Source of the DNA: Nemertoderma westbladi
Lineage: Eukaryota; Animalia; Xenacoelomorpha
Assembly: GCA_032718475.1 (NCBI GenBank)
Contig: JAUCBJ010001766.1
Coordinates: forward strand, 1 to 38,976
Reading direction: 5' to 3'
Length of the DNA: 38,976 nt
Shown here: in pieces, positions 3,067-37,283 of the stretch
Position numbering within the stretch: position 1 is the stretch's first letter
Layout of the letters: every line of letters starts with the position of its first letter
The notes under the pieces: generated by a model
What the model was told of the DNA's origin: nothing
What the model saw: only the letters and a program-made list of their open reading frames with translations
Databases searched by the model: none
Translations under genes and position numbers: made by a program

Positions 3067-3194
3067 CTGTCCCCCTTTCTTTGATTAATTGGTGGTGTGG
3101 GTTAATCTCTCATAACCTGATTTTGTGATACAGTCGCACAATTTTAATTTGTATCTCATAACTGGGCCTCGTGCTGCGCGAAGGCCCCACGAAC

Positions 3195-4318
3195 GTGTTT
3201 CTGTTGATCCGATTCCTTGTAAGTTACATATTTTACATTTTGCTAAATATATTATATCTTTGTCATCACAGGTAAGGCGCTGTTTAATTTCATATTTAGT
3301 TTTCAAACGGGTCGAGGTTAATCCGAATTGTTTTGTTGGTTTTATCGCTTCACATGGTATACATTTCTGTCTTGTACATTTTTTAGATCCAGCATGTGTT
3401 GTATTTGCCTGGTTCTTCTGCTTTGATGTTAAACTGGATGGAGCTAAAATTCCCTTTAGCGTAGGGGCCCTACGGTTAATATTTACTATTTTATAAGAGT
3501 CAATGAGTTGATTGGTCCTGATGTCTGTTCTTAGAATAGGTGTATGTTTGTCTACTATCTTTTGTATTGATCCTAATATAGGTTCAGTGTTACTAACATA
3601 AAATATGGTATATTTACTTTTATTTCGTTTTTTATCATTTTGTAGAGATTCTAACTGTGTCTGTCTGAATAGCTGCCGCTGCAAATTGTGTAGTAACATC
3701 GGCCATTCTCCAACCCCTAGCAATGAATGCTGCTCCATATTCATAAAGTGCTTGCATTAAATCCTCCATTCGTGAATTGTTACGCCTCAATCGTAGGGCA
3801 ACCCCATATGGAACGTGTTTAAGTTGACTGTGCGGATGGGCTGAGTGCGGACATATATATTGATGGACGTCTGTTGGTTTGTGGTATATTTTTGTTTGAA
3901 GTATTCCATTGTCATCAAAAAATATAGTTAAATCTAAGTAATTAATTTTCCTTCCATATTCTTCTAATTTAAACTTTATTTTCCCAGGTTTAACGGTATT
4001 GTTGAGGTGGTCAATCAGAATACCGATATCTTCATCTTCTTGTTCAAGTGTAATAGCTATTCCATCATCTATAAATCGTTTCCATTCTTCCGGAGGCTTT
4101 GGTGAAGTTCGGACTGCTGTATCAATATATTCAGCACCAAAAATGTCTGTGTAAGAGCAAGAGTATGATGGGCCCATTGCCGACCCATCCACTTGTGTGT
4201 AATGTTTTCCATTAAAACTACAATTATTACAATTTAAACATAATTCTAGAGCTTCAGTCAAACATTCTACTGGGGGAGAGTCTTCTAGTAATAAATCTGG
4301 GTGATGAAATCTATCCAA
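3195..4318 (-). mobile_element. Penelope-like retroelement fragment (RT C-terminal half, thumb, Cys-rich linker, start of GIY-YIG endonuclease), frameshifted and truncated at both ends
   Basis: ORF 3635-4318 has QVDGSAMG, RFIDD, NYLDL, YHKPT and SAHP, typical PLE RT motifs. ORF 3085-3744 has CTRQKCIPC...LTC and IIYLAKCKICNLQGIGST (GIY-YIG-like). Frameshift near 3640-3660. Confidence 0.92.
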
Positions 4319-4620
4319 ACTTGGTACACATGTTGTTTGGCAAAAGTTTAGAAATTTTCTAAGTTGAATTTTCGTGTGGCCTTCGAGAAGCTAAGATAAT
4401 AGCAGTTAATTAGTTAATTAAATTGATTACGGTAAAAACAGCACTTTCAACCTGCCTGTTAAAGGAAATTAATTGTTTTACAGTATAAGACTTCAATAAT
4501 TATACTTAAAAATTATACAGATGTAATCCACATACCCCATTCTATTATAGTTTTTAATTAGTTCAAGTGATTTGCTTTAATAATTGTGTCTTTAATTGAT
4601 CTAAAGTAATTAAAACGGCA
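4319..4620. repeat. Diverged partial copy of the repeat at about 8478-8770
   Basis: Shared CTTGGTACACAT...GGCAAAAGTTTAGAAATTTTC...CCTTCGAGAAGCTAAGATAATAGC...GTTCAAGTGATTTGCTTTAA. It abuts the truncated end of the Penelope RT. Confidence 0.85.
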
Positions 4621-5254
4621 TAGAAAATTGATTCTCATTAAATACTGCTCATTTATTGGCCAACATGCTGGTACATAGATGGAAGGATGTGTGTGTAAGG
4701 CAGCCAGTTGCTGGGAATGATTATTGGTCAAGTCTCTGCTGGTGTGGAGCTAGCTGGCTGGGAGTTGTGGCTGTAGACTAACCAGAGAGGAATTGTAATA
4801 GGCAACCAGGATTGCTATTCCAGCCCAGACAGCATTCTTTAAATCCCACATCCCACCATCCTTCCTGTATTCCAATTCCTATTGACTCTACTATAAATGT
4901 TGTATTGCTATCTCAGGTAAATGACAGATGATAATAACATAAATACTATCCATGGCATGGCTGTTGTGTAGGCTTATATATGAAATAGTTTATTCCACAA
5001 TGTATTTGTCTGGTTATTTTTTAATTGAATTTTTGTAAAGTAGTAAAATTAATGTTCTTAAAAATAATTTTATTATTTTATATGTAACCAAGGAAATTAG
5101 CTACAATTTTTCGCTGCAGCTTTAAGAGTGTACATTGATTTAATATTATTTCAATACCCATATTACTACATCGGCATACGATGCGTTGGCGTTGTATCAC
5201 ACATCTCCACATAGATGTATCAGCAGTTACTCGCACAGTTTCGAAACTTCGCAT

Positions 5255-5826
5255 AGTTATAACTGTATAAAGGTCGTCAGTCTGCGTTTAGGAAAAATAT
5301 TTTATGACAACACAGGACGAGCGACGAGCGCAACGAGGCATATAATGAAGACGAGTACTGCGTAGACTATATTCCTATAAACCATACCTGGCTGCGCCTA
5401 TTGAACGCATCGGTAGTTATAAAGATCGTCAGTCTGCGTTTAGGAAATATATTTAAATATAAAACAGGACGAGCACAACCAGGCTTATAAAGAAAACGAG
5501 TACTGCGTTAACTAAATTATTATATAAACCACCTGGCTTCACACATTTATCGCATCCCTAGTTATTATTATTATAAAGATCGTCCTAGCCTGCGTTTAAG
5601 AAATATATTTAAATTCAAAACAGGACGAACGCAATAACGAACGCTTATAATGAAAACGAGTACTGCGTTTATTATATTCCTATAAACCACCTGGCTTTGC
5701 ATATTGAACGTGCAATTGGAAATAAGTTCGTGCTACCCTTCCGTGGGTGGTAGATGTCGCGGTTGTGTATTGGTGGGTGGGAAGGGTGGGGGGGGGGGGG
5801 TCCAGATTAAAAGGGCTGAACACGTA
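5255..5826. repeat. Three diverged tandem units of about 152 bp plus a G-rich end
   Basis: AAAG(G/A)TCGTC near 5269, 5421 and 5575, each followed by CAGGACGA and ACGAGTACTGCG. The last unit plus tail is duplicated at 2797-3066. Confidence 0.8.
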
Positions 5827-11866: not shown

Positions 11867-12074
11867 CCCTATGTCACAGCAAATAATTTAATAATTTATT
11901 TATATTACAAGTAGCTCCTTACTGTTTTTATATTATCCGATTTCTGTATTATTATTTATAATTTTAAACCTAATTAACTAAAGTAAACTTAATAACTTAA
12001 ATTGTGTTGTTGAGCGGCATATACATAACTGGCGGCATAATGATGTTTTGATTATAAAAACCAAGAAAGCCATA

Positions 12075-12959
12075 ATGGAGATTATTTCGTTTGTTTTATT
12101 TCTTATCTGTCTAACTGATATCAGCTACCAATCTGATTCAATTCTACAAGAAATCAAGTTTACGCAACCATTTTATAACGTTAGCATTACTGAACATGTC
12201 CCATCCCACAGTTACGTTAACACAAAAACACGAATGGGAATTCAAATTCCCCGCCAATTTCTTCCGAGGGGTTCGTATGGCGAGGCCCTGACCATAGTTT
12301 ATAAAATAGAAAAGACGAGTAGTGTGAAGGAATTTTTTAAAGTTGAAACTTTTTTAACCGGCGATTTCGTTTTTTTAGCTGTTCGAACGAAGGGCGGCAC
12401 GTTAAATAGTCTAAACCGCGAGCGTCAGGATTTATACGAGATACCTGTAAAAGGTGTTATTCGGTTAGCGGGAAAATACGGAGGAGGGGGACAAAAAGTT
12501 GAAGTTTATTGCCGTGTTTATTGTCGGGTAGAAGACGCTAACGATATTCAACCTTTTTTTAACCAATCAGCGTACAGTATAGACGTTCTAGAATCAACAC
12601 CCGCGAGAAGCGAACTGGTAGCTGTGCACGCTTACGACGCCGACATTGGTGCTAATGGCGATGTTTATTACTCGTTTGTTGAGGAAACTGAAACGTTTTC
12701 TATTCATCCCATAAGCGGGGTTGTAAGTCTCATTAAAGAGTTGGATTACACGCAGGCTGTTTACTACAGGTTGACTCTAAGTGCTAAGGACAGGGGGGGT
12801 GGGGGCGGGGGCCAGCATGCCCCCTCGACCAACCCCTCTCTCGCACTCCTAGAGATAAACGTTAAACAAATAAACATGCATTCCCCTGTCATTGCTATTC
12901 ACCATCTCCCCAATGTTGTTGAACATGGTCTCAACGAGACAATTTACGCCATACTACAG
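12075..12959 (+). CDS. FAT1: Fat-like (FAT1/2/3 group) cadherin, coding exon 1: signal peptide and first cadherin repeats
   Basis: ATG at 12075 gives hydrophobic MEIISFVLFLICLT. FTQPFYNVSITE, GDFVFLAVRTKGG, LNRE, DANDIQP, AYDADIGANG and FSIHPISG match the FAT1-type N-terminus as I recall it. Donor CAG|GTACGG, phase 0. The symbol denotes the FAT1/2/3 orthology group. Confidence 0.93.
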
Positions 12960-14977
12960 GTACGGTTCTATTAATATATTTTTAATTTATTACGATTACG
13001 CCATACTGATAAAGTACACTAGTCTGATAATGTTGATGTGCTGCATTTATAGGTGTATGTTTGTATGTATGGGTGTATAATATTAGTATAACAGTGGTGG
13101 CGGGGGGCGGGACGTGCCCCCCACTAGAGAGTCGCAGGGTGCCAAATTTCCCCCCCACAATATAAAGATTTCCATATCAGATTCTCACAATTTACAATTT
13201 TTATTGTATTTTTATATATTTAGACTTTGTATTTTTATTGAATCTCCTCCAGCATTAAGTTTTTTTATTGCAATTATTTCTATCTTACAACCTGTACAGA
13301 TAGCAGATACCAATTCGTTTATTGTTTTGGTTAGATATAGATAATTATAAACGAATATAAATACGTATTTATGAAAATATAATTAAGACACATTCACATT
13401 AACCTTGTTTACTATTACGATTTATTACAGTCGTGTATTTAGTTTACAGGGAATAATATCGGTTTCCTATTAATTTATTTGCATCTGCGACCTTATTGAA
13501 CTTTGTAATTATCTGCTTCCGACGCATCCAAGCAGTATAACAATAATTGTATCTTATTTCATTATCTTATTGTTTATAGCAGGCCTATACGTAATATTAA
13601 ATGAGGTTGTAGAAACAACAGCTTGCAATATGCGTATAGTTATAGTTAAACGTAATGTAAGCAAGAAAACTAATTTTATTGTTTTATATTTTATTGTTAT
13701 AGTAGAGTAATGTGCCCCCTACCTACATGAGTTTGCGTGACAAACAGTTAACTTGGCAAGTAATTCTATATATTTTAGCTGTTTTAGCTACACTAACTTA
13801 TCGCATCACTGTTGTATATAGGCACCAGACACTCACAACACTCTAATATCTATGCTAACAATGTTATCATATTTATGTGTTATTATCTCGCAGGTTGACT
13901 CTGTATCCGGCTATGTTATTATACTATAACTATTACTGCCACTTCCCAGATAACAATATTTGTATTTGATAAGAACGAAATGTATTTTGCAAAGTGATGT
14001 TAATGAAACGAATTCGTCTTTATTTTATTTCCAGTAACGAGATGTTATTATTAATGACATTTCAAGAACTGAGTTGTAATTTGAATTCTTAATAAAACTA
14101 ATAAAAAAAACACCCTAATTTTATTTTATTTTCAATTAATGGTATTGAATTTTGTGGAAATGCGCGGGTTTTTTTTTTTAAACATATTATTATTGATATT
14201 GGGGGATGCAGATGTGGGAGTGGGGGGGGGGGGGGGGGGGGTGGTTTTCAAATTAATACATTTCTTATTAGGTAAGTGACTCGTCCGGATTTTATTGAAG
14301 TGACTCATTGGGAGACTGACAGACAACGGACTGCACCAGGTATTCCTCTCTCCTAACATAACTGAAACGGCAATACTTTTTGTAAGATTTACTGCCTCTA
14401 CTTTACAACATGTTTTATCTGGTAGACTTAGACAGCCACTAATAATATGTTGCCAATACACCAGTAATTCCCAGTCCAATAACCCTAAACTCGCAGCTGT
14501 TGTTGGCTGTGTCGGGGTTTAAGGCGGCCGAGATTGATATTGGAGTTTTCTATAGATAATTGGATATCTTATCATATTATACTAATTCTATTTATATTTT
14601 TAATAGTCTCTGTATCAAAGTTGCTTAAGATATTATGATTAAACGAATTATTATCCCTTGAGACATTTATTCAAATTTGAATTAAATTAAATAAATTGAT
14701 ATTGATAAAGAATTCCTAATTCCACCACCCCACACCCCCTGACATAAAGACAAATTCACACGTATCAGTGAAATGATTAATTGAAATTTTTGCATATATC
14801 ATAAATATGAACTGAAAGACTCAAATTATTAAATTTTGAATGTCGGAAACCCCTAAATAAATGTATTTATACAATCGTAAGTATAAAATTAAATATAATT
14901 TTTACTATTTACATTAGAATTCCTCCAATAATTGGTTATTTTTCAGGGCACCACCACTCAGATGTTTTGTTCCCTAG

Positions 14978-15208
14978 GTAACGGACGCAGACAGCCACCG
15001 TAGCGGTCGCATCGACCGGGTCTTCCTTTCTTCGGGAGACGACGACAGACAGTTCCACGTGACCCGCGGTCTGGGGGGTCCCTCCGAGTACACCATAGAG
15101 ATAGCGCGGCCCCTGGACAGGGAGACCAAACCGGCGTACAACCTCACCGTAGTCGCCTGGGATAGCGGTGCCCCGGTGCGGTCCGCTAGTATATCGGTTC
15201 GGGTGCAG
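14978..15208 (+). CDS. FAT1: Fat-like cadherin exon 2
   Basis: TTCCCTAG| VTDADS...PLDRE...YNLTVVAWDSG...VRVQ |GTGAGT; 231 nt, phase 0-0. Confidence 0.92.
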
Positions 15209-15363
15209 GTGAGTCGCCGTCGGCGTGAGTCGGAGTTAATTAATAATAATAAATGAATTGTTGTGGGGCGAGTGACGCGGTGTATTAAATATACAATGTA
15301 AATTGGACAATATGAAAATGCTCTCCATAGCGAAAAATAACAACCGGCCCTATTGGGGCTCGA

Positions 15364-15407
15364 ACCCGGTACCTAGGTTTCAAACTTCTGGTTATCATCA
15401 GCCGAGT
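15364..15407 (-). ncRNA. Minimal type I hammerhead ribozyme motif (left arm)
   Basis: Minus strand reads ACUCGG CUGAUGA UAAC-CAGAA-GUUU GAAA C-CUAG-G UA CCGGGU. Stem I is 6 bp with one U-G pair. Predicted cut after GUA, between 15370 and 15369. Confidence 0.75.
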
Positions 15408-15598
15408 GTGTGTACTGAGCTACCAGACCGGATGAATATTTCGCTGTGGAGTGGGAGATCATATTTAGCCCGTACAATCACTCAAAGGAATAACGGTAAT
15501 AACGAAAGTTGTACTTTCCTTTGAGTGATTAGTTGGCCTTAATATGATCTCCCACTCCATAGCGAAATATTCATCCGGTCTGGTAGCTCAGTACACTC

Positions 15599-15642
15599 AC
15601 CCGGCTGATGATAACCAGAAGTTTGAAACCTAGGTACCGGGT
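15599..15642 (+). ncRNA. Minimal type I hammerhead ribozyme motif (right arm)
   Basis: ACCCGG (15599-15604), CUGAUGA (15605-15611), stem II AAC/GUU, GAAA (15625-15628), C-CUAG-G, UA, CCGGGU (15637-15642). Stem I is a perfect 6 bp. Predicted cut after A15636. The first stem II position is U-U, which is non-canonical. Confidence 0.78.
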
Positions 15643-16308
15643 TCGAGCCCCAATAGGGCCGGTTGATATTTTTCGCTATGGAGAGTTAATTAATGCGCTC
15701 AACGCTGAAACCATTGAAATTATTTATCGATCTTCTTCTGAAATATAATAAAAATTTTGGAACATTTCATATATCCCGGGAATAAAAGCGATATTTAAAA
15801 AAAAATTGAATGACTAACAAATACAGCAGTTATTCCAATTCAATGGAATCAATCGCCTCTCCTATTTAAGTCTCTAACCTTTGTAATTTATAAAGACAAA
15901 ATTTAGGTATTATAATATGAGTGGAGTTCTAGAGATTAGCAATGGCCGCAAATATGTCATAGCTAACGGTATAACTTGTTACTATTGGTATAGATAGTGT
16001 TCTGGAATATGTTAGCTATTTATTTTGAATTCATGTTCCGGTTCTATTTTTTTTGTTCTATTCAATTCATTATAAAATCTGGAATGCATTTTATTTACAA
16101 CGTATTGCATATCTTTCTAAAACAACGTGTTTAAAACTAATTAAAAATGAGTTTTGTATCAGTTGAAAGCTCGTGTTTGTTTAATGTGAGCTAGTCTTTA
16201 GTTTTCTGTCTAGTTACATTTGTTCATTAACACTATTAATTTTAGTTGGTAATTTTGTCATTTCACTGTTAAGACTAAAAGTGAAGCTGGGATATGCCGG
16301 CGAAATAA

Positions 16309-16627
16309 CTGGGACGAAACGTCCTGGGACGAAATGCCCTGGGCCCGAAACGTCCTGGGACCGAAACGTCCGGGGACGAAACGTCCCGGGACCGAAACGT
16401 CCTGGGACCGAAACGTCATGGGACCGAAACGTCCTGGGACCGACACGTCATGGGACCGAAACGTCCTGGGACGAAACGTCTTGGGACGAAACGTCTTGGG
16501 ACCGAAACGTCATGGGACCGAAACGTCCTGGTACCGACACGTCATGGGACCGAAACGTCCTGGGACGAAACGTCTTGGGACGAAACGTCTTGGGACGAAA
16601 CGTTCTGGGACCGAAACGTCCCGGATC
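16309..16627. repeat. 15/16-bp minisatellite, about 20 units of TGGGAC(C)GAAACGTCC; resembles a solo arm of a foldback transposon
   Basis: Direct tandem units ending in CCCGGATCC. No opposite arm seen. Confidence 0.9.
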
Positions 16628-16695
16628 CATATTTAAAGTATTTGTAATCTGTTTGACATTATTTTTACTCCAATATTGGTTATTCTGTTGTCTAG

Positions 16696-16948
16696 GTAAC
16701 CGACACTAACGACCACGCGCCCACCTTCCTACGTAGCAGCTACAACGCTACGGTAGATGAACTGAGCCCGTCGCACACCATAGTAACCAAGGTAACGGCC
16801 CGAGACAAGGACCTCGGTGCCAACGCCCTCGTCAGATACTCTTTGCGTAGCGGCAATGATTTGGGAATGTTCCGTGTGGATCCGACTACAGGGTTGCTGG
16901 TCGTGAAGGAACCCTTACCGGCTCATCCGACTATCTACGCGCTCACAG
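16696..16948 (+). CDS. FAT1: Fat-like cadherin exon 3 (absent from the ORF track)
   Basis: TGTCTAG| VTDTNDHAPTFLRSSYNATVDE...ARDKDLGANALVRYSL...FRVDPTTG...IYALT then G|GTAGGT; 253 nt, phase 0-1. Confidence 0.92.
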
Positions 16949-18118
16949 GTAGGTAGTGCTGGCTCATTGGTTAACATACCGGCTAACAGGCAGGTAGTAC
17001 CGGCTCAATGGTTAACAGTACCGGCTCACAGGTAGTTAGTACCGGCTCAATGGTTAACAGTACCGGCTCACAGGTAGGTAGTACCGGCTCTCAGGTAGGC
17101 TGCACCGGCTCATTGGTTAATAGTACCGGCTCACAGGTAGGTAGTACCGGCTCATTGGTTAATAGTACCGGCTCATTGGTTAATAGTACCGGCCCACAGG
17201 TAGGCAGTACCGGCTCATTGGTTAATAGTACCGGCCCACAGGTAGGCAGTACCGGCTCATTGGTTAATAGTACCGGCTCATTGGTTAACAGTACCGGCTC
17301 ACATGTAGGTAGTACCGGCTCACATGTAGGTAGTACCGGCTCACAGGTAGGTAGTACCGGCTCTCATTTAGGCTGCACGGCTCATTGGTTAATAGTATCG
17401 GCTCACAGGTAGGTAGTTCCGGCTCAATGGTTAACAGTACCGGCTCACAGGTAGGTAGTACCGGCTCTCAGGTAGGCTGCACCGGCTCATTGGTTAACAT
17501 ACCGGCTCACAGGTAGGTAGTACCGGCTCAATGGTTAACAGTACCGGCTCACAGGTAGTTAGTACCGGCTCAATGGTTAACAGCACCGGCTCACAGGTAG
17601 GTAGTACCGGCTCAATGGTTAACAGTACCGGCTCACAGGTAGGTAGTACCTGCTATCAGGTAGGCTGCACCGGCTCATTGGTTAACAGTACCGGCTCATT
17701 GGTTAATAGTACCGGTTCATTGGTTAATAGTACCGGCTCATTGGTTAATAGTACCGGCCCACAGGTAGGCAGTACCGGCTCATTGGTTAATAGTACCGGC
17801 TCATTGGTTAACAGTACCGGCTCACATGTAGGTAGTACCGGCTCACAGGTAGGTAGTACCGGCTCTCATTTAGGCTGCACGGCTCATTGGTTACTAGTAC
17901 CGGCTCACTGGTAGGTAGGTAGTTCCGGCTCATTGGTTAATAGTACCGGCTCATTGGTTAATAGTACCGGCCCACAGGTAGGCAGTACCGGCTCATTGGT
18001 TAATAGTACCGGCTCACAGGTAGGCAGTACCGGCTCACTGGTTGGGAGTACCGGCTCAATGGTTGGCAGTACCGGCTCACTGGTTGACGGAACCGGCTCA
18101 CAGTGAGGCAGTACCGGG
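16941..18118. repeat. 21-bp minisatellite with two unit types, overlapping the exon 3 donor
   Basis: Units ACCGGCTCACAGGTAGGTAGT and ACCGGCTCATTGGTTAATAGT. Higher-order block of about 500-520 bp (GGTTAACATACC near 16970 and 17493). Confidence 0.95.
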
Positions 18119-18225
18119 GTTCGCATAACGAGCTACGAGTATTTGTGGAAGTAAACTCGGAATGTTGTAATTATAATTAAATTAAGGTTTTTCAACTTTA
18201 TCTAACGTATTTGTCTACGTTTCAG

Positions 18226-18357
18226 TGCGAGCGACCGACCAAGGGGTGGCGTCCATGCGTCGATGGAGCGAGTGCGTTGTTTACGTCGCCATACGTGACG
18301 TGAACAACCACCCGCCTCGGTTCGATATGGAAGAATACACGGCACGAATTAGCGAAG
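18226..18357 (+). CDS. FAT1: Fat-like cadherin exon 4
   Basis: GTTTCAG| (V)RATDQG...IRDVNNHPPRFDMEEYTARISE then G|GTTTGT; 132 nt, phase 1-1. Confidence 0.9.
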
Positions 18358-18557
18358 GTTTGTTTACAAATAGGCAGTCTTTCTTATTTCTACCTTATAA
18401 CATGTACAGTTAGTTTATTGTTTTGGTTAGATTCACACCTTCTGTAACCTGGGTTTTTAGTGAAACCTGGTATTATTCACATGAGGTAAACCACAAAGTG
18501 AAATATAACAGCTGGAAGTCTTGTATGCTCCACATGTACCAATAGGGAAGTCACTTA

Positions 18558-18710
18558 AGGCCATGATACACCACAGGAGCGGCGAGCGGCAGCAGCCATT
18601 TGTGGTGTATCATCACCCATAGAAAATAATGTGTTCTATTTTTAAAAAGTGGCCGCTCGCCGCGGCCGCTCGCCGCTGCCGCTCGCCGCTCCTGTGGTGT
18701 ATCATGGCCT
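18558..18710. mobile_element. PIF/Harbinger-type MITE, 153 bp
   Basis: Perfect TIR of more than 30 bp (AGGCCATGATACACCACAGGAGCGGCGAGCGGC). TTA on both sides (18555-18557, 18711-18713). Confidence 0.88.
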
Positions 18711-18832
18711 TTAGAATCCGTTTGGTTACAAATTTCGATACAAAACGAATTGTGACGTCACGAAACTATTAACTTTTATGGATTGGTCGGGTGTTGAATC
18801 TCTTCAATTGTTTCAATTTGTTCCGATATTTG

Positions 18833-19735
18833 ACTTTATTTTACTCTATCCAGGTGCTCCAATCGGTACTCCCGTTCTGTTTTACTTTATTTTACTTTAT
18901 CCAGGTGCTCCGATCGGTACTCCCGTTCTGTTTTACTTTATTTTACTTTATCCAGGTGTTCCGATCGGTACTCCCGTTCTGTTTTACTTTATTTTACTTT
19001 ATCCAGGTGCTCCGATCGGTACTCCCGTTCTGTTTTACTTTATTTTACTTTATCCAGGTGCTCCGATCGGTACTCCCGTTCTGTTTTACTTTATTTTACT
19101 TTATCCAGGTGTTCCGATCGGTACTCCCGTTCTGTTTTACTTTATTTTACTTTATCCAGGTGCTCCGATCGGTACTCCCGTTCTATTTTACTCTATCCAG
19201 GTGCTCCGATCGGTACTCCCGTTCTGTTTTACTTTATTTTACTCTATCCAGGTGCTCCGATCGGTACTCCCGTTCTGTTTTACTTTATTTTACTTTATCC
19301 AGGTGCTCCGATCGGTACTCCCGTTCTGTTTTACTTTATTTTACTCTATCCAGGTGCTCCGATCGGTACTCCCGTTCTGTTTTACTTTATTTTACTCTAT
19401 CCAGGTGTTCCGATCGGTACTCCCGTTCTGTTTTACTTTATTTTACTCTATCCAGGTGTTCCGATCGGTACTCCCGTTCTGTTTTACTTTATTTTACTTT
19501 ATCCAGGTGTTCCGATCGGTACTCCCGTTCTGTTTTACTTTATTTTACTTTATCCAGGTGTTCCGATCGGTACTCCCGTTCTGTTTTACTTTATTTTACT
19601 TTATCCAGGTGCTCCGATCGGTACTCCCGTTCTGTTTTACTTTATTTTACTTTATCCAGGTGCTCCGATCGGTACTCCCGTTCTGTTTTACTTTATTTTA
19701 CTCTATCCAGGTGTTCCGATCGGTACTCCCGTTCT
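18833..19735. repeat. 51-bp minisatellite, 18 copies, made of the exon 5 splice acceptor
   Basis: Unit GTTTTACTTTATTTTACT(T/C)TATCCAG|GTG(C/T)TCCGATCGGTACTCCCGTTCT. AG ends at 18853, 18904 ... 19159, 19200 (one 41-bp unit), 19251 ... 19710. Confidence 0.97.
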
Positions 19736-19943
19736 CTCTGTCCTCGCCACTGACGCAGACGAGATGGGTAGCGCGTTCGTCCTCTACTCTATAGAGAACA
19801 TGGACGCGGCGGTTGCCCTTCCCTTTAGGCTCGCCCCACGCGAGGTGGTATACGGGGCTACGAGTGGGAGCAACCGCGCTCAGGATATTGTGACCTCGCG
19901 TCTGTTAGACTACGAGACAATGGCTCGGGTCTACACCATACAG
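19711..19943 (+). CDS. FAT1: Fat-like cadherin exon 5
   Basis: (G)VPIGTPVLSVLATDADE...LLDYETMARVYTIQ |GTATGC; 233 nt, phase 1-0. The start assumes use of the last acceptor copy. Confidence 0.87.
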
Positions 19944-19984
19944 GTATGCCAGCGTGTTTATTAGGTTATTTACAACACCAATAT

Positions 19985-20160
19985 TGGTGTGGTGTTGTAG
20001 ATTCGATCCTCGCAAAGGGAGACTTTTCACTTCGGCAAGAAAGCGACTAGACGTAGACAGAGCTTTATAACTGAATTGCCTCCATAAATGTTTGCTAAAT
20101 GGGTACCAGTTTCCTGTGGGGAGTATACTTCTGGGGGGGGGGGGGGGGGGGGATCCCTAC
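19985..20160 (+). mobile_element. Possible degraded SINE
   Basis: B-box-like AGATTCGATCC and AAATGGGTACC, a motif I associate with conserved SINE central domains. Weak evidence. Confidence 0.3.
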
Positions 20161-20297
20161 ACTAACGGCTGAATAAAACTTTATTAACACACTATATTGT
20201 AAAACATGTGCATGTTGTTGGGCATTGTTACTTCATGTGTTGTGTAGGAAATTATTGTCTGCCCTCTACATCTACAACAAATCGCCATCTGGTGTTG

Positions 20298-21135
20298 GGG
20301 CCCTAATCACATAGCGAGGTGTTTAATTTGGGCCCTAATCACATAGCGAGGTGTTTAATTTGGGCCCTAATCACATAGCGAGGTGTTTAATTTGGGCACT
20401 AATCACATAGCGAGGTGTTTAATTTGGGCCCTAATCACATAGCGAGGTGTTTAATTTGGGCCCTAATCACATAGCGAGGTGTTTAATTTGGGCACTAATC
20501 ACATAGCGAGGTGTTTAATTTGGGCCCTAATCACATAGCGAGGTGTTTAATTTGGGCCCTAATCACATAGCGAGGTGTTTAATTTGGGCACTAATCACAT
20601 AGCGAGGTGTTTAATTTGGGCCCTAATCACATAGCGAGGTGTTTAATTTGGGCACTAATCACATAGCGAGGTGTTTAATTTGGGCCCTAATCACATAGCG
20701 AGGTGTTTAATTTGGGCACTAATCACATAGCGAGGTGTTTAATTTGGGCCCTAATCACATAGCGAGGTGTTTAATTTGGGCACTAATCACATAGCGAGGT
20801 GTTTAATTTGGGCCCTAATCACATAGCGAGGTGTTTAATTTGGGCCCTAATCACATAGCGAGGTGTTTAATTTGGGCACTAATCACATAGCGAGGTGTTT
20901 AATTTGGGCCCTAATCACATAGCGAGGTGTTTAATTTGGGCACTAATCACATAGCGAGGTGTTTAATTTGGGCCCTAATCACATAGCGAGGTGTTTAATT
21001 TGGGCACTAATCACATAGCGAGGTGTTTAATTTGGGCCCTAATCACATAGCGAGGTGTTTAATTTGGGCCCTAATCACATAGCGAGGTGTTTAATTTGGG
21101 CCCTAATCACATAGCGAGGTGTTTAATTTGGGCCC
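20298..21135. repeat. 32-bp minisatellite, 26 copies
   Basis: GGGC(C/A)CTAATCACATAGCGAGGTGTTTAATTT, with only one variable position. Confidence 0.98.
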
Positions 21136-21705
21136 GTTAATATCTTTATGCTTCTAATTAAGTGATGCTGTGTGAATGTATAATATGGCGAGGCGACAGT
21201 TATTGGCAAATTATATCCAAAACAAAACTCGAATAATATTTTCGACTTATTCTCCATTTATTTACCCCACCAATAACTAAACTCTAGAAATATGTGAATT
21301 ATACCATAACAAAGAAATATACAATAACTTGTAGTCATAAAGGCGATACGGAAGTAAATAAAGTGCTCTTTTTATACTTTGATGTACTCGGTAACCATAG
21401 CAACAAACTGTTATTTTAGTTGTCAATAATGAGCTGATGAGCTTGTTTCAGATTGCAATTGGGGAAATTTGTGTCATAATTAATTATTAATTTAAAATTA
21501 GAAATTGAAAGTAAACTATGTATAACTTCATAATGATACTCAAGATATGGTGCTGCTCTCATTAAAATTAAAATTCATGGTCTTAAAAATAAATATGCTA
21601 TTCGTTTTCACTGTAAAATTCTACACTAAATAGATTCTGAACTGCGTTGTAACGGTTGTCTATAGAATCGACTATTTCACATCACAAATTTATTTGATTT
21701 AATTC

Positions 21706-24110
21706 GGGTAGGTGTAAAACGCGGATCCGGATCCGGATTCAGGATCCGGATACGGATCAGGACACGGATTTGCGAGTGTAAAAGGCGGATCCGGATTTAC
21801 CTACAATCCGTAACTGAGTGTAATATGCGGATTCTGAAATACGCAATCCGTATTGCAGTGTAAAACGCGGATTCATATATTTTATGAATCCGGAATGGAG
21901 TGTAAAATACGGATTTACGTTAATTACCAAGTTTTAATGGATCCGGAATGGAGTGTAATTCACGGATTTTCGTGAATTACCAAGTTTTGTTGGATCCGGA
22001 ATGGAGTGTAAAATACGGATTTTCGTTAATTACCAAGTTTTATTGGATCCGGAATGGAGTGTAAAACACGGATTTCGTTAATAACCAAATTTTGTTGGAT
22101 CCGGAATGGAGTGTAAAACACGGATTTCGTTAATTACCAAGTTTTATTGGATCCGGAATGGAGTGTAATACACGGATTTTCGTGAATTACCAAGTTTTGT
22201 TGGATCCGGAATGGAGTGTAAAACACGGATTTTCGTTAATTACCAAGTTTTATTGGATCCGGAATGGAGTGTAAAACACGGATTTTCGTAATTACCAAGT
22301 TTTGTTGGATCCGGAATGGAGTGTAAAACACGGATTTTCGTTAATTACCAAGTTTTGTTGGATCCGGAATGGAGTGTAAAACACGGATTTTCGTGAATTA
22401 CCAAGTTTTATTGGATCCGGAATGGAGTGTAAAACACGGATTTATGTTAATTACCAAGTTTTATTGGATCCGGAATGGAGTGTAAAACACGGATTTTCGT
22501 TAATTACCAAGTTTTGTTGGATCCGGAATGGAGTTTAAAACACGGATTTTTGTTAATTACCAAGTTTTATTGGATCCGGAATGGGGTGTAAAACGCGGAT
22601 TCAATTTATTTACCAAGTGTTACTAGATCCGGGAAGGTGTGTAAAACGCGGATTGATTCAGGTTAATTACAAAGTGTTACTGGATCCGGGAAGGGGTGTA
22701 AAACGCGGATTGATTCAGGTTAATTACAAAGTGTTACTGGATCCGGGAAGGGGTGTAAAATGCGGATTTACGTTAATTACTGAGTTTGTTAATGAGGGAC
22801 ACAACTATTAATGAGGGACACACATTAATGAGGGACACAAACATTAATGGGGGACACCTTAATAGTTAATAGACACCTTAATAATTAGTCTATGTCTAGG
22901 GGCCACACATAAGCTTAATCCGGCTCTGGGGGACACCTTAAGTGGGAACGTGACCTCCCTGGTAGAGCGGCTCTGTAGACAATTGTATGGTAGGATTACT
23001 GTCCTGTTCCCTGATTGGCTTATCCATCCCAACCTCCCTTACAAACAAGAATCACTGTTCTGCCTAGCTGGCGGTAGTTTGTACTGCATCATAGCGTACT
23101 CTATTTAAGGCCTTGCAAGCGTGCTGCCTTCCTAATTTATGGAGGCTGAACTGTTCAGTATAATTTCTTATTAAACATGGATGACAGTGATGACTTTGTA
23201 AAGGTTCCATTTACGGGATTCGTTATTCCGAGTCCAACCAATGATACAGCCATTGTTGAGCCGCTTGAACTCACTACCCAAACATCGTGCACCCCGAGTC
23301 CGGAGAAGAAAAAACCAGGAAAGTCAGCAAGCCAAGAAAAGTTACTAAAGAACAATAAACATTGCACTAATTAATAATTGTAACTAGATGAGGCTCTGGG
23401 TCTTTATTGCATATGCGTTTTATAAATTGTTCATTAAAACTTACTAATTAACTTGAATCCGCGTTTTACACCCCTTCCCGGATCCAATAAAACTTGGTAA
23501 TTAACATAAATCCGTGTTTTACACTCCGTTCCGGATCCAATAAAACTTGGTAATTAACGTAAATCCGTGTTTTACACTCCATTCCGGATCCAATAAAACT
23601 TGGTAATTAACGTAAATCCGTGTTTTACACTCCATTCCGGATCCAATAAAACTTGATAATTAACGTAAATCCGTGTTTTACACTCCATTCCGGATCCAAT
23701 AAAACTTAGTAATTAACGTAAATCCGCGTTTTATACCCCTTCCCGGATCCAATAAAACATGGTAATTAACTTGAATCCGCGATTTACACCCCTTCCCGGA
23801 GTTAATAAAACTTTGTAATAAACCTGAATCCGTATTTTACACCCAATCCCGGATTCAGTAGAAATATGAATCCGTGTTTTACACTCCGTTCAGGATTTAG
23901 CCTAAAACATGAATCCGCGCTTTACACTCCGTTCCGGATCTGAAAAAAAGGCCAATCCGCATTTTACACTCGGTTAAGGATTCGGTAAATTTAGCAGTGC
24001 ACGGATCCGCAGATTACACCCTAAAAATGTAAATTCAGTCGACTTCCATAGGGACAATGTTAAATGATAGAATCCTGATCCTGATCCGGATCCGCGTTTT
24101 ACTCTGACCC
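21706..24110. mobile_element. Foldback/Mutator-type non-autonomous transposon, 2405 bp
   Basis: Perfect 9-bp TSD ATTTAATTC (21697-21705, 24111-24119). Ends GGGT...GTAAAACGCGGATCCGGATC inverted. Arms are built from about 60-bp tandem units in opposite orientation. Confidence 0.9.
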
Positions 24111-24169
24111 ATTTAATTCCTCTGCCAAATACGGAATGATTTATTTAAAATGGTTTCTTATTATTCTAG

Positions 24170-24334
24170 GTTCGGGCCCAGGACTGGGGGGAGACCCGCA
24201 GTAGGGAGGCGGTTACCAACGTTACCGTTTACTTAGACGACGCAAACGATAACGCCCCGCTCTGGACTGAGACGGGTTGCCGGGCAACCATACCTCGCGC
24301 TTACCCACCCGGTCGAGGGATTATCACGCTTCAG
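24170..24334 (+). CDS. FAT1: Fat-like cadherin exon 6 (absent from the ORF track)
   Basis: TATTCTAG| VRAQDWGETRSREAVTNVTVYLDDANDNAPLW...GIITLQ |GTGATC; 165 nt, phase 0-0. Confidence 0.92.
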
Positions 24335-24779
24335 GTGATCTAACTAGCTAATGTTCTAAAATATTATCGGGATTGGTTAAACCCGTCGTCCATAGAAATT
24401 TACAAAATATTTTGAACGATTTTCTGTAATTTCCGATCGATTATCGATGATTTTCGATTATTACCAATGTAAAATATAAGAAATTATAAATTATTTATTG
24501 GTTAACCTTAATGGATCAACGTAATTATAAATACGGTTAAACATTTCCTGGGATAATCGAAGCTGATACAAGTTGATTACGAGCAAAGGTTTACTGTTTT
24601 GGTTAGGATAATAATCCACATTCCATTCCCTTTAATTATTAATAATTAACAATATTAATTTGCCGAGATAATTTGTTCAACCCCCCCCCCCAAACCCCAA
24701 CAACCCCTGTCTCACTGTACTACTACTATTGGAACTTAATTTGGCGCAAATTTAATTATTATTTATTATTAAACTACAG

Positions 24780-25384
24780 GCGGTAGACTACGACGCTGGC
24801 TCTGTGGTTACCTACCGGGTTGCCGGGGGCAACCGAGGCGATGTGTTCCGAGTGGATCCCCGCACCGGGGTGGTGAGTCTCTCCCGAGCGATCCGGGGGT
24901 CCGACGAGTCGACCTACCGACTCGAGTTTGTCGCCTCCGACGGCCAACTCGATTCCTCCTCCAACTTCCTCAACGTTAGCGTCTACGCGGGCGGCGGAGC
25001 CGGCTCGGTGGCCCGGCAGTTCGCCTGCGCGCAAACCGGGGCGCTTCGCCAAGTCGCTAGATTCGACAGCCAAGCGATCCGTGCGCAACGCGCGCACGAC
25101 TCGTCGCTGAGGCGGTTCTCCGACGACTTCCTCGTGGATCGGCACGCGCCGCGGTTCCCCCCGCAGCAGCGCGACGCCTCGGTCTCCGTCTCGGAGTACC
25201 TCGACGTCGGATCGGCGGTCTTCCAGTTGCGTGCTCGGGATGCTGACAGCCCCGGAGGTGACGGGTTCAGTCCCAGGTTGCGGTACGTTGTCGCCTACGG
25301 GAACGTCGACGGTTGCTTCGGGATCAGCGATTCGCTTCAGGCTGTTACTGTTATCAGTCGGCTAGACCGGGAGAAGACAGACAG
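24780..25384 (+). CDS. FAT1: Fat-like cadherin exon 7
   Basis: CTACAG| AVDYDAGSVVTYRVAGGN...FRVDPRTG...ARDADS...LDREKTD then AG|GTATGT; 605 nt, phase 0-2. Confidence 0.92.
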
Positions 25385-25828
25385 GTATGTAGCCCTCTTG
25401 CGTTGTCAGGTTGCTAACAAGTTAATTTAACATATTAATATTGGTTTCCTAACTTCTAGGTCGGAATTGTCTGGATCCAAATAAATAAAAATAATTAATA
25501 GAAATTACCGGTAATCAATAACAAAAATCTGTGTTCTAGATAATATAATAATATTTTTCTTTTTTGATAGCTAGTATGCTTTAGAACATTTTCAAAAAAT
25601 AGCAAAAACTAGATAGTATTATAAAAATTTGGAGGGGGTCTGCCTAAAAAACACAGAATACACTCAATTCGAAAAGTTCTATACAACTATAAAATTACAT
25701 AGCAAACGTGTCTAGAACGAAGAAATATCCATGGACACATCAATATTATGTTGAATAATAAACAATGTAACGTTATTATTATGTTATTAAAATTATTATT
25801 TATTATTATTATAATTTATAAATTATTT

Positions 25829-26008
25829 GGGTCGGAATTGTCCTATGCTGGATCCGGATAATTCCGACCCGGACAATTCCTACCCATTAAAATTTCATTC
25901 AAGCTCTGAGTGGCTCGGAATTGTCCGTGTCGGAATTGTCCGGGTCGGAATAGTCCGGGTCGGAATTGTCCGGGTCGGAATTGTCCGGGTCGGAATTGTC
26001 CGTACACC
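25829..26008. repeat. 15-bp GGGTCGGAATTGTCC units in direct and inverted orientation (small foldback MITE)
   Basis: Two inverted units (GGA(T/C)AATTCC..CCC) face six direct units. A solo unit also occurs near 25459. Confidence 0.8.
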
Positions 26009-26206
26009 AATGAAAGGGTAGTGTATATTAACCATGAAACATCACGGCCACAATGATCAATTAGTAGCGAGTGGTTAAAGACGGCCAAGTACTGTAGGGT
26101 TGAGCGCAGTGGCAGCAGATGATGGTATGACAGATGGGAGGCCATGAGGAGGTAAATTGCGGACATACAAGGTATCTGATAGTATTTCCAGGTGTATATT
26201 TTACCT

Positions 26207-26320
26207 GAGCCGGTAGCTGAATGGTTAGAGCGTCAGACTTCCAACCCGGAGGTCACCAGTTCGAGCCCACCTGGACGTCATTGCCATATTTGCAAAAAGC
26301 TGTGCCCAACAAAAAGTTAT
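26207..26320 (+). mobile_element. tRNA-derived SINE head
   Basis: A box TAGCTGAATGG, D-arm-like GGTTAGAGCG, B box AGTTCGAGCCC. Stems are too degenerate for a real tRNA. Confidence 0.7.
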
Positions 26321-26327
26321 AATAGCA

Positions 26328-26525
26328 TTTATATGCAATCCAACCTCCTTAGCAGCCCTCTCCACTTTATTTAGTAGAAGCTGTGCATCTGCTAGCATAT
26401 TAGAGAGCAGGGCGATGTCATCCGCAAAGTCGGTGTCTGTGACTGTAGTTGCCGGATATCTACTACTTCTGCGTTCTTGAAGTGTGAATCCCAGGTCTTC
26501 ACCCTTTGTGGCCGTCATCATTGCG
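26328..26525 (-). mobile_element. LINE reverse transcriptase fragment (RTE-like)
   Basis: VTDTDFADDIALLSN...AQLLLNKVERAAKEVGLHIN matches the non-LTR RT FADD and GLxIN motifs. Confidence 0.85.
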
Positions 26526-28151
26526 TATGTGTTTTATTCTCTACATTTCTCCATATGCCATAATCTTTTCTCAATGAAACTAGTGACGGGCCTAGCGGCC
26601 CGATAAGGAACCGACTTTTTATTTTAAATAAGAGACAATAAGAATTAGTATAGAACTAATAATTATGTAAAAATACAATCATATTTCATACAATAATTAT
26701 TAATAAATTCGATCTATTATTAGTTGCTCAATTCTAGAACAAAATCGACCTGCAACTAGTGAAGACCTCGTTTTGGAATTTCGAAACCACGCTGGTGCGA
26801 TGCGCGATATCGTGTTTAGTTAATAAATTGAAAACTCCATCAATTCATGTGAAACCAGTAATAAGAAATCGCGATAAATGTAATTAAATAAAAATTATTC
26901 TAGAAAAATTTTCCTCAAAAAGTATGAAGTCTTGGCGTTGGTGACGCGAAACTAGGCTAGTGAGATTCAGGATATTGCGTTTAATATAAAAATCGAAAAC
27001 GCTATCGAATTCCGTAAAGGCGTTAATAAAATACTGCAACTTTTTTGAAATTTGTAAAATTCTAGAACTAGAAAAAATTATTTTTTGAACGGCGCTGTTT
27101 GGGGTTTCGAAACATGGATAGGCTGAAAGAGGACATCTAATTAAGTTGAAAAATGAAAACCCCATCGAATTTGGACAAAGCGTTCCGGAGTTATAGCGGA
27201 TCGAAAAAAATTGACCCCCCCCAGTCGCCAAAAATTTACAGTAATTTAAAATTTTGCAAAAAAAATTTTTTGCGTTATTTTTGATGGCGAATCGATTGGC
27301 AGTACTGGCTACGAAAAATTTTTTTTTGAAATTTTTGGTCAGAAAAAAAACATGGAAAAAGTATACTTTTAAAAAGATTTGATGTCTTTGCCTATGGTCA
27401 GAGAATGATCCAACTCTGTAACTTGGCAATCGCTCAAATCCATTCAGCTGAATGGCACAGTAGAGTAAACTAAAGTAAATTCCCTATACAATGTTCTGAA
27501 GGGGTGACTGACAGAGAGTAATCCAACAATAAAACATTTTGCAATAATGTTGGCATTAATGTAGCCAACTCACTGTGTACGTAACAGTCATTCAGCTTAC
27601 ATTAGCAGAGTGAGATATTCCCATAGATTGCATTGGGAAGAGTAATTCAGCTGAGGCGATATTAGATTTCAAACTAAACCAACCAGTTAATAATGTTTGC
27701 TTTGACAGAGAGTGGTGGCCTATACAAACAGTATGGGTGTACTGAGTATAATAATCTTGGCAACCTCATCGATTTATTACTAAGCCTTCTGTAGAAATGC
27801 ATTACATAAGCCATTTTTCATCACGACACCAGCTGTCATGGGTGTTATTTTACCATTGCGCCTATGGCGTTTTTTCGTTTATGTCTATTTTTCGAGCCCA
27901 CGGCTCATGGACGAAATAGCGGAACATACCAGGGACCTTAGAATCGCGGTATCTAGCCGCTGTGAAAATTTCATCAAAATCGTTAGAGTAGTTTTGGCTG
28001 TAGATCAGTCAGCCAGCCAGTCAGCCAGCCAGCCAGCCAGTCTCGAGCAATTCTTACAGTAATGAACCTCTCGGTTCCTCTTTTACTACTAGTGACGGGC
28101 CTAGCGGCCCGATAAGGAACCGACTTTTTATTCCAAATAAAGGAGACAACG

Positions 28152-29103
28152 AGCTCGGCTCGGTCTGGCATGATTGGGCTCGATTCAGTTCGACTTGGCT
28201 TGATCGGCTCGGTTTGGCTCGATTGGGCTCGACTCGACTCAGCTCGATTCGGCTCAATCAGCTTGATTGGGTTCGACTCGGCTTGGTTCGGCTCAATTGG
28301 GCTCGACTCGGCTCGATTGGTCTCGACTCGGCTCGATTGGGCTTGAATCGGCTCGATTGGTCTCGACTCGGCTCGATTGGGCTTGAATCGGCTCGATTGG
28401 GATTAATTGGGCTTGACTCGGATCGATTTGGCTCAACTTGGCTCAGTCCGGCTCGACTGGGCTTGGTCCGGCTCAATTGGGCTCGACTAGGCTTGATTGG
28501 GCTCTACTCGGCTCTATTGGGCTCGACTCGGTTCGATTGGGCTTAACTCGGCTCAGTCGGGCTCGACTCGGCTTGATTAGGCTCAACTCGGCTCCGTCCG
28601 GATCAATTGGGCTCGACTCGGCTTGATTGGTCTTGACTCGACTCAGTCTGGCTCAATTTGGCATGTCACGGCTCGATTGGTTTCGGCTCAGCTCGGTCTG
28701 AGTCGACTCAGCTCGATTCGGCTCAATCGGCTCGATTCGGTTCGACTTGGCTCGGTCCGGCTCGACTTGGCTCAATTGGGCTCGATTCGGCTCAATCCGC
28801 TCAACTCGGCTCGATTGGGATTGATTGGGCTTGACCCGGTTCGATTTGGCTCAACTTGGCACAGTCTGGCTCGATTGGGCTCGACTTGGCCCAGTCCGGC
28901 TCAATTGGGCTCGACTAGGATTGATTGGGCTCGACTCGGCTCTATTGGGCTCGACTCGACTCGATTGGGCTTGAATCGGCTCAGTCTGGCTCGCTCGGCT
29001 TAATTGGGCTCAACTCGGCTCCGTTCGGCTCGATTGGGCTCGACTCGGCTTGATCGCCTCGATTGGTTCTATTCGGCTCGATCGGTATGATTCGGCTCGA
29101 TTG
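28152..29103. repeat. Degenerate pentanucleotide repeat (GGCTC/GACTC/GATTG) inside array unit 2
   Basis: About 950 bp of 5-bp periodicity; source of the low-complexity ORFs at 28214-29003. Confidence 0.95.
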
Positions 29104-29104
29104 A

Positions 29105-29441
29105 CACATGCTGCTGGAAGGGTCAAAGCCAAACTCACGTGCTGCTCGAAGGGACAAAGTCAAACAGTGTGTCTATTATTTGATGTAACTCACGTGCTGC
29201 TCGAAGGGCACAACATCATATATCAAGGGTCAAAGCAAAACTCACGTGCTGCTCGAAGGGACAAAGTCAAACAGTGTGTCTATTATTTGATGTAACTCAC
29301 GTGCTGCTCGAAGGGCGCAAATACATATATCGAAGGGTCAAAGCCAAACTCACGTGCTGCTCGAAGGGACAACTCAAACATTGTGTCTAATATTTGATTA
29401 ACTCACGTGCTGCTCGAAGGGCGCAACTACATATATCGAAA
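29105..29441. repeat. Tandem repeat of about 54 bp (alternating, about 107-bp dimer) with AACTCACGTGCTGCTCGAAGGG core
   Basis: Six exact core copies near 29132, 29188, 29239, 29294, 29347 and 29400. Confidence 0.9.
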
Positions 29442-35400: not shown

Positions 35401-36383
35401 ACAAAGCGTTCCGGAGTTATAGCGGATCGAAAAAAATTGACCCCCCCCAGTCGCCAAAAATTTACAGTAATTTAAAATTTTGCAAAAAAAATTTTTTGCG
35501 TTATTTTTGATGGCGAATCGATTGGCAGTACTGGCTACGAAAAATTTTTTTTGAAATTTTTGGTCAGAAAAAAAACATGGAAAAAGTATATTTTTAAAAA
35601 GATTTGATGTCTTTGCCTATGGTCAGAGAATGATCCAACTCTGTAACTTGGCAATCGCTCAAATCCATTCAGCTGAATGGCACAGTAGAGTAAACTAAAG
35701 TAAATTCCCTATACAATGTTCTGAAGGGGTGACTGAAGAGAGTAATCCAACAATAAAACATTTTGCAATAATGTTGGCATTAATGTAGCCAACACACTGT
35801 ACTTAACAGTCATTCAGCTTACATTAGCAGAGTGAGATATTACCATAGATTGCATTGGGAAGAGTAATTCAGCTGAGGCGATATTAGATTTCAAACTAAA
35901 CCAACGAGTTAATGTTTGCTTTGACAGAGAGTGGTGGCCTATACAAACAGTATGGGTGTACTGAGTATAATAATCTTGGCAACCTCATCGATTTATTACT
36001 AAGCCTTCTGTAGAAATGCATTACATAAGCCATTTTTCATCACGACACCAGCTGTCATGGGTGTTATTTTACCATTGTGCCTATGGCGTTTTTTCGTTTA
36101 TGTCTATTTTTCGAGCCCACGGCTCATGGACGAAATAGCGGAACATACAAGGGACCTTAGAATCGCGGTATCTAGCCGCTGTGAAAATTTCATCAAAATC
36201 GTTAGAGTAGTTTTGGCTGTAGATCAGTCAGTCAGTCAGTCAGCCAGCCAGCCAGCCAGTCTCGAGCAATTCTTACAGTAATGAACCTCTCGGTTCCTAA
36301 TAAACTTTTCTCACTTACTATTGGCTGCGTTTTTTTTCCTTTTACTATAAACTTGGATCCATATTCTTCCGTTTCTCCCGTAG

Positions 36384-36934: not shown

Positions 36935-37283
36935 GTGGGTTCTAAAATCAATCATAATGTTTATCTATGTAACTCAACTTTATTTCCCTATCAGCTGTGT
37001 TGAATATATCCCTAACTAAAGTTAAACGCTACACTTTATTGTACAAACAGTACACTTTATTTTCTCCATTGTATATCTTGAAGTGAATTGCCCAAATATT
37101 GTTGAAATATGCAGAAAGACGCTACATAAATATATGTATATGTATATTATTGTTATTATTATTATCTTATCTTGACTACTTTATGTCCCTTTAGTGTATA
37201 TATTCCTACTGTACTTTACCCCCCCCCCCCCCCCCCCCCCCCCCTCCAACTAGATTTCATTCTAACTTTATTTCCCTGTCTAG

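Follow-up and report, generated by a model that had tools for sequence, protein, structure and literature searches.

An inverted structure found within an intron of a cadherin gene of the xenacoelomorph Nemertoderma westbladi (contig JAUCBJ010001766.1, positions 1-38,976; this whole stretch is referred to here as the window) is best explained, with moderate confidence, as one insertion of a many-copy, non-coding repeat in which a hammerhead ribozyme motif is nested in a tRNA-like frame. The repeat is likely a retroelement copied by the enzymes of Penelope-like elements (PLEs), and its inverted twin arrangement is likely the footprint left by such insertion. The nesting is the distinctive feature of the element, with the cleavage triplet occupying the variable-loop position of the frame and stem I lying on the T stem and B box.

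Because 12-bp direct repeats, corresponding to a sequence that occurs only twice in the window, flank positions 15245-15682, the insertion is considered to comprise a tail (15245-15320), a left unit, a junction and a right unit (Table 1). With the GT donor of the cadherin intron being found at 15209, the insertion begins 36 nt into that intron. A foldback of 365 bp (15321-15685) had been described in an earlier, sequence-only reading of the window, and its arms were readily located (15321-15490 and 15516-15685), each being 170 nt long and the two being 94% complementary. The arms differ at 10 of 170 positions, six of which are clustered in 10 nt (15466-15475). The 5' ends of the units lie at about 15503 on the minus strand and at 15505-15508 on the plus strand, and microhomologies of 10 nt and 3 nt are found at the junctions, the latter at the end of the inverted arm. 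The 76-nt tail is present on one end of the insertion only and its end is an AT-rich simple repeat. Each arm also contains a perfect 13-bp helix (15555-15567/15671-15683; z about -4) that prolongs the acceptor helix and reaches into the tail. The direct repeats, the one-sided tail, this outer helix and the many-copy family considered below go beyond what had been noted earlier. No open reading frame runs through the unit and tail, and no further copies of the element were detected elsewhere in the window.

Table 1. Features of the insertion and its surroundings, in window positions.
Feature	Position	Strand	Basis or remark
Host cadherin-domain coding stretch, stop-to-stop frame	14978-15208	+	Pfam PF00028, E 2.9e-11; donor sequence
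Left 12-bp AT-rich direct repeat, likely target-site duplication	15233-15244	.	10 of 12 nt also matched by family contigs
3' tail, left arm only, part of the family	15245-15320	-	Depth and loose ends, sequence
Left unit copy, outward-reading, with variant 5' block (six differences, 15466-15475)	15321-15503	-	
Left hammerhead with U-G in stem I; cleavage predicted after 15370	15364-15407	-	
Head-to-head junction, meeting point of both 5' ends	15491-15515	.	
Right unit copy, tail-less; final 3 nt shared with the right direct repeat	15505-15685	+	
5' strand of 13-bp outer helix, which the tail's first 12 nt could prolong to about 15541	15555-15567	+	
tRNA-like acceptor 5' strand, positions 1-7	15577-15583	+	Against 15654-15660, 6/7 pairs
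A-box core at tRNA positions 8-16; this subfamily has a shortened D arm	15584-15592	+	
Right hammerhead, predicted cut after A15636	15599-15642	+	Stem I 15599-604/15637-642; CUGAUGA 15605-611; stem II 15612-624; GAAA 15625-628; palindrome 15628-635
B box/T arm, overlaps stem I 3' strand	15640-15650	+	Sequence, register
T5 run, possible Pol III terminator, also within the outer helix	15669-15673	+	
Right 12-bp direct repeat	15683-15694	.	

The 13-bp inner inverted repeat prompted consideration of a cut-and-paste MITE or a Helitron-type element, yet such readings were rejected since copies reach beyond this repeat on both sides and since the direct repeats are of 12 bp and the ends asymmetric. 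A match to MIR537 reflects the central hairpin alone.

Judged by its sequence, each arm carries a putative minimal, palindromic type I hammerhead inside the tRNA-like frame. CTGATGA, GAAA, C-CTAG-G and GTA were located on both arms, in agreement with the full core and 6-bp stem I previously described, such that the conserved elements of minimal type I hammerheads (CUGANGA, GAAA and UH) are found together with six of six stem I pairs and a tiny stem III containing an 8-nt palindrome. The single stem I difference between the arms (15601/15405) is real and, as had been stated, preserves pairing, with C-G in one arm and U-G in the other. By contrast, stem II is not the stable stem with a basal G-C pair seen in such ribozymes, comprising instead a U-U at its base and three pairs, the same weakness as had been cautioned earlier. 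In a comparison with Rfam, put forward in the sequence-only reading as a check of the motif, Hammerhead_HH9 aligned to both arms at 19.7 and 17.7 bits, far under the gathering score of 52 (E 0.0083 with 141 bases searched). A pattern combining the hammerhead with a B box, written after the element had been seen, yielded two matches in the window and none in 100 shuffles.

The A-box core (15584), the B-box core (15640) and the acceptor helix were found to occupy a fixed tRNA register on both arms. The proposed acceptor-like pairing of CCGGTCT with GGGCCGG corresponds to six of seven pairs, in exact register, between positions 1-7 and 66-72 of the frame. The claim that the hammerhead lies between the A and B boxes likewise held for both arms; when the hammerhead was kept fixed, the in-register frame was recovered in 0 of 20,000 flank shuffles. 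In shuffles of the window, its chance rate was 0.01 per window. The 3' strand of stem I, extending to 15642, corresponds to the 5' strand of the T stem and, as had been noted, overlaps the B box, which starts at 15640. As such, the ribozyme fold and the T arm would be mutually exclusive. The frame is not that of a complete cloverleaf, lacking an anticodon stem and presenting three of five T stem pairs, and no tRNA gene was called by ARAGORN or by Rfam. Under relaxed settings, ARAGORN returned a tRNA-Leu with a 242-nt intron that stretches across the two arms, an artefactual call due to the palindrome. In the family considered below, the loose ends at 15413 and a single joint string point to copies in which the A box runs via GG into a longer D arm. 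The absence of the GG here thus appears to reflect a deletion in this subfamily, accounting for the earlier caveat that the A box lacks these bases.

It is conceivable, albeit tentatively so, that a tRNA gave rise, in place, to an active hammerhead, with the A and B boxes still serving as promoter and the resulting self-transcribing, self-cutting tRNA-ribozyme chimera parasitizing Penelope enzymes. In such a scenario, an anticodon-loop motif would have become CUGANGA, the variable loop would have become the cleavage site and a T-stem strand would have become a strand of stem I. The exact register maintained from the cleavage triplet via the T arm to the acceptor strand argues for this origin, as does the possibility of three Watson-Crick states at acceptor pair 2-71 in the unphased variants of the family. 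Moreover, ordinary tRNA genes can hold both core boxes, since two of eight metagenome matches to the hammerhead-plus-B-box pattern are tRNA genes called by ARAGORN, in which CTGATGA is the anticodon loop and GAAA is found in the variable arm. Such mimicry of both boxes by tRNAs serves as a warning, while also rendering an in-place origin conceivable. Against this origin, CUGAUGA lies some 4 nt beyond the anticodon register in those copies with a long D arm, and capture of a ready-made PLE ribozyme would be simpler.

The distribution of the repeat was considered in public DNA runs from one organism, obtained in three studies. Five of the eight runs listed contain part of the stretch and four of these were analysed, one of which may be the source of the window itself. 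Matching contigs were found in all four runs (1486, 836, 1009 and 109, respectively). In run X1, summed depth over 15236-15685 reached 1-2e5, as compared to 34-59 on the unique right flank, a value that is inflated by overlapping short contigs and does not equal copy number; the left flank is without cover in every run, probably due to a filter, and was left out of the comparison. We infer that the element is present in hundreds of copies or more. Depth in run X1 is maintained on passing upstream from the tRNA-like start (34k vs. 35k), and cover passes the T5 run into the tail. Among the 24 of 570 loose ends listed, 3' ends of the family cluster at 15307, 15286 and 15235-15241, and the 5' end was placed near 15505-15508; those found further upstream than 15508 are of mixed sequence (agreement 0.55-0.59), suggesting a hard 5' end. 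Among the 15 of 57 joints listed, 10 are antisense-to-sense, head-to-head junctions between units with differing breakpoints and two more switch strand, while no head-to-tail joint was seen either here or at the locus. The variant 5' block of the left unit is covered well above single-copy depth.

Several individual contigs deserve mention. In run X4, an inverted tail-to-unit contig (joint 15324 to 15544) presents a depth of 932, as opposed to 17-50 for the other contigs listed, implying that this inverted composite was itself amplified. Some copies pass 15235 with shared sequence (agreement 0.56-0.78) in which a loose likeness to the 5' start of the left unit can be seen by eye, offering a weak hint of head-to-tail units of some 280 nt. 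Finally, a joint linking 15369 to 15637 coincides with both predicted cut sites; being of single-copy depth and with undetermined letters in between, it was set aside.

The arrangement seen at this locus is one previously described for PLEs, insertions of which often include a second copy that is inverted, 5'-truncated and directly adjacent, and present a tail on just one end (PMC8557442). Likewise, pairs of minimal hammerheads on opposite strands, 100-700 bp apart, are known (PMC4209133, as excerpted). Of mechanistic relevance, the PAc protein is described, in that part of the study covered, as nicking AT-rich DNA, extending both strands, starting at two internal RNA sites and assisting its own hammerhead, cleavage by which is dispensable for insertion in vitro (PMC11167929). 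Here, an inverted, 5'-truncated copy joined at its 5' end is found both at the locus and in the 10 of 15 listed joints, together with discrete 3' ends, an AT-rich target and a one-sided tail, albeit one of 76 nt rather than the usual 30-40 nt. As such, the inverted twin is most likely a known Penelope-type insertion footprint, probably involving two template RNAs, rather than the dimerisation device envisaged in the sequence-only reading, given the varied breakpoints of the listed head-to-head joints. The six clustered differences between the arms and the coverage of the left variant above single-copy depth fit two template RNAs better than a single RNA that folded back. A Pol III RNA of about 100 nt, as had been proposed, is an unlikely mobile template, since copies begin some 70 nt ahead of the tRNA-like start and pass the T5 run.

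Were the element instead a tRNA-derived SINE mobilised by an ordinary LINE, its inversion would have to be ascribed to twin priming acting on a dimeric RNA. In keeping with the SINEBase definition, the repeat is short, non-coding and present in many copies, and includes A and B boxes in a tRNA-derived frame; the 12-bp target repeat, the AT-rich simple repeat at the end of the tail and the 3-nt microhomology where the inverted arm ends also fit such mobilisation. Nonetheless, this is rather unlikely. The tRNA-like head is not at the 5' terminus, with the unit starting at about 15505, some 70 nt upstream of position 1, and with no drop in depth between the two; the same 170 nt are duplicated in both arms; and inversions comprise the majority of the joints listed. 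In addition, a minimal palindromic hammerhead is a PLE trait, in the sections considered of the survey of such motifs (PMC4209133).

A slightly less probable possibility is that an autonomous Penelope-like element with a tRNA-derived promoter contains the unit as its pseudo-LTR, the copies seen being truncated stumps. This would leave the same footprint as does insertion of a non-coding repeat by PLE enzymes, and is in line with those contigs that pass 15235 with shared sequence; yet no open frame crosses the unit and tail, and the mixed loose ends before 15508 suggest that the unit has a hard 5' end.

To address conservation, variants were mapped onto one arm, with 40 of 53 rows being listed, of which three fall in the unique flank and from which tail rows were not counted; the variants are unphased and their classes were set after the data had been seen. 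In this listed set, no variant was found at the 18 core and palindrome positions, whereas outside the ribozyme, 16 of 87 were variable (Fisher p 0.04). The sequence-only reading had suggested alignment of copies as a test of core conservation, and in the variants listed the core was indeed spared, a pattern that is suggestive of selection on the ribozyme. Of the four listed variants inside the ribozyme, one changes N7, one yields a wobble in stem I, one lies in loop II and one replaces U-U by A-U at the base of stem II, the last accounting for about half of the depth in run X4. Amongst the unphased acceptor variants, changes at positions 2, 3, 66 and 71 could keep or better pairing, whereas changes at 68 and 69, present at a few percent, would disrupt it.

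The folding of the corresponding RNAs was next predicted. The isolated core (15595-15648) is predicted to prefer a double-hammerhead dimer, the lowest-energy dimer pairing stems I and III at -39.0 kcal/mol, as compared to 2 x -11.8 (-23.6) kcal/mol for two monomers and -32.8 kcal/mol for a dimer with the core forced open; the palindrome duplex by itself is predicted at -11.4 kcal/mol. By contrast, in the whole unit, 15577-590 is predicted to pair with the core and stem II, with the probability of stem I being 0.0, and in the 15575-15673 RNA, the active fold lies above the competing fold by 6.7 kcal/mol in the monomer and by 12.6 kcal/mol in the dimer, energies that take no account of tertiary contacts or proteins. 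In the host pre-mRNA, the two arms would pair in a hairpin of -317 kcal/mol, predicted to mask the sense ribozyme. With the competing fold predicted to mask the ribozyme, self-cleavage by the unit is doubtful. The earlier notion that two RNAs of about 100 nt dimerise and self-cleave thus finds partial support at the level of the predicted core, yet not at that of the 15575-15673 RNA, whose dimer favours an inactive fold.

These predictions bear on two further explanations. In the first, which we consider improbable, the hammerhead of this tRNA-derived repeat is now inactive or a look-alike, and appears conserved simply because amplification was recent. The weak stem II, the competing fold and the low Rfam scores point in this direction, as do the two metagenome pattern matches called as tRNA genes; those tRNAs, however, present neither stem II nor a palindromic stem III, and listed variation in the family spares the core and, in one run, re-establishes stem II. 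In the second, the inverted twin itself would be functional, with two divergent RNAs of about 100 nt dimerising and cleaving, yet while both arms are intact, the palindrome could form a duplex and one inverted junction was amplified in run X4, this is most improbable, given how breakpoints differ among copies and often delete one ribozyme, with the listed joints suggesting that two intact ribozymes in this geometry are absent from most copies, how many copies could provide partners in trans and how the full-unit dimer is predicted to prefer an inactive fold.

Returning to insertion of a non-coding repeat by PLE enzymes as the preferred reading, the following course of events can be proposed. 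Shared bases would serve as Pol III promoter in DNA and as ribozyme in RNA. The mobile template would be a longer read-through or multimeric RNA, as copies include about 70 nt before the tRNA-like start and run beyond the T5 run. A PLE protein would then nick both strands at an AT-rich site and copy two RNAs, one starting from the tail end and the other from the helix end, such that the resulting cDNAs would join head-to-head. The competing fold would normally hold the ribozyme off, with cutting occurring only in a palindrome-linked dimer and probably being protein-assisted; this would free a unit-length RNA with its ends clamped by the long helix. The PLE-like remnant found in the window is in line with this course. 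Several points argue against it, including the absence of head-to-tail joints among the 15 listed. The 76-nt tail exceeds the 30-40 nt given for PLEs, the junction microhomology is unlike the non-homologous initiation reported for PAc, the T5 run would stop Pol III ahead of the tail, and stem II is without the usual G-C, with the active fold being predicted to be disfavoured in the whole unit. As for an autonomous partner, the element shows no similarity to the PLE-like remnant in the window (see below) and the unit contains no RT or GIY-YIG open reading frame.

The closest known system is the Sm-alpha family of Schistosoma, which, together with Sj-alpha, resembles the present element in being tRNA-related, apparently transcribed by Pol III, present in many copies and equipped with a type I hammerhead (PMC6765202; PMC2770079, each in the sections considered). 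In Sm-alpha, as drawn in a review figure legend, the promoter precedes the ribozyme and units form tandem arrays; here, the ribozyme is instead nested between the boxes, sharing bases with the B box, and the locus is head-to-head. Penelope-like insertions and their minimal hammerheads, to the extent described in the passages considered (PMC8557442; PMC4209133; PMC11167929), share with the element an inverted 5'-truncated copy, a one-sided tail, discrete 3' ends, an AT-rich target and a palindromic, tiny stem III, while the element differs in having no open reading frame, a tRNA-like frame, a longer tail and junction microhomology. Metazoan non-LTR retrozymes (PMC7229834; bioRxiv 10.64898/2026.07.22.740005, in part) resemble it in unit size (150-450 nt, non-coding), in carrying a type I hammerhead, in pairing strongly with themselves, in having larger target repeats and in their proposed PLE origin, yet are defined by head-to-tail tandems and circular RNA, and are described without a tRNA-like promoter in the text covered. 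The Helenus and Cassandra TRIMs also contain a small-RNA-derived Pol III promoter inside the repeat rather than at its 5' end; these are LTR elements with PBS, PPT and target repeats of 4-5 bp, and the portion of the main text considered mentions no hammerhead (PMC10886601). Finally, in Pr77/L1TcRz of the Trypanosoma L1Tc element, one set of bases likewise encodes both a DNA-level promoter and an RNA-level ribozyme, although the latter is HDV-like, lies 5'-terminally in a LINE and is apparently not tRNA-derived, in the part of the report considered (PMC3383444).

The sequence-only reading had been aware of no element of this design. As to the nesting, no hammerhead nested in a tRNA frame was encountered in the literature surveyed, which was judged mostly by title and start of abstract. 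The statement does not stand for the inverted twin, which is known from PLE insertions; the twin is thus not new and it is the nesting that is the interesting part. Pattern scans returned one, zero and six loci in viral contig collections, eight in metagenomes, zero in each of two sets of prokaryote genomes and none in plasmids; none of these 15 loci corresponds to the present element, the collections being mostly prokaryotic and containing little animal DNA. Among these loci, L002 and L007 (1475-1563) are metagenome tRNA-like genes with a long variable arm, a GAT anticodon (tRNA-Ile by ARAGORN), both core boxes and, by eye, five of six stem I-like pairs. L001, on a viral contig (~580-650, minus strand), is a hammerhead-like motif in which GAAA is followed by the same CCTAGG as in the present element, yet with no tRNA frame.

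Were the element active, some 100 bases would do double duty, with shared nucleotides serving as Pol III promoter at the DNA level and as self-cleaving ribozyme at the RNA level, such that cleavage would part the A box from the B box. An active element would also offer a compact natural system for addressing the role of hammerheads in Penelope-type transposition and whether SINE-like elements are able to use PLE rather than LINE enzymes, as well as a candidate case of a ribozyme evolving from a tRNA.

Elsewhere in the window, a broken RT and endonuclease remnant spans 3085-4390 on the minus strand in two frames, both of which match one 969-aa protein (41% and 29% identity). On the basis of its motifs, we take this remnant to be Penelope-like; its fragments received no name from Pfam or PDB. 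Some 900 nt upstream of the remnant, at about 5225-5290 on the minus strand, lies a hammerhead-like core (CTGACGA ... GAAA), part of which is duplicated near 5430. Regions 11982-12974, 14978-15208 and 36700-37635 are exons of the divergent cadherin gene, the best relative of which is 33% identical and which, from its motifs, is presumably Fat-like; the later exons are much more GC-rich than are the introns. Finally, 16250-29050 and 26600-36250 contain many tandem arrays with periods of 10, 16, 21, 32, 51 and 53 nt, including an inverted pair of 53-nt arrays at 21845-23897, as well as a unit of about 1.5 kb that is repeated about five times within these array regions.
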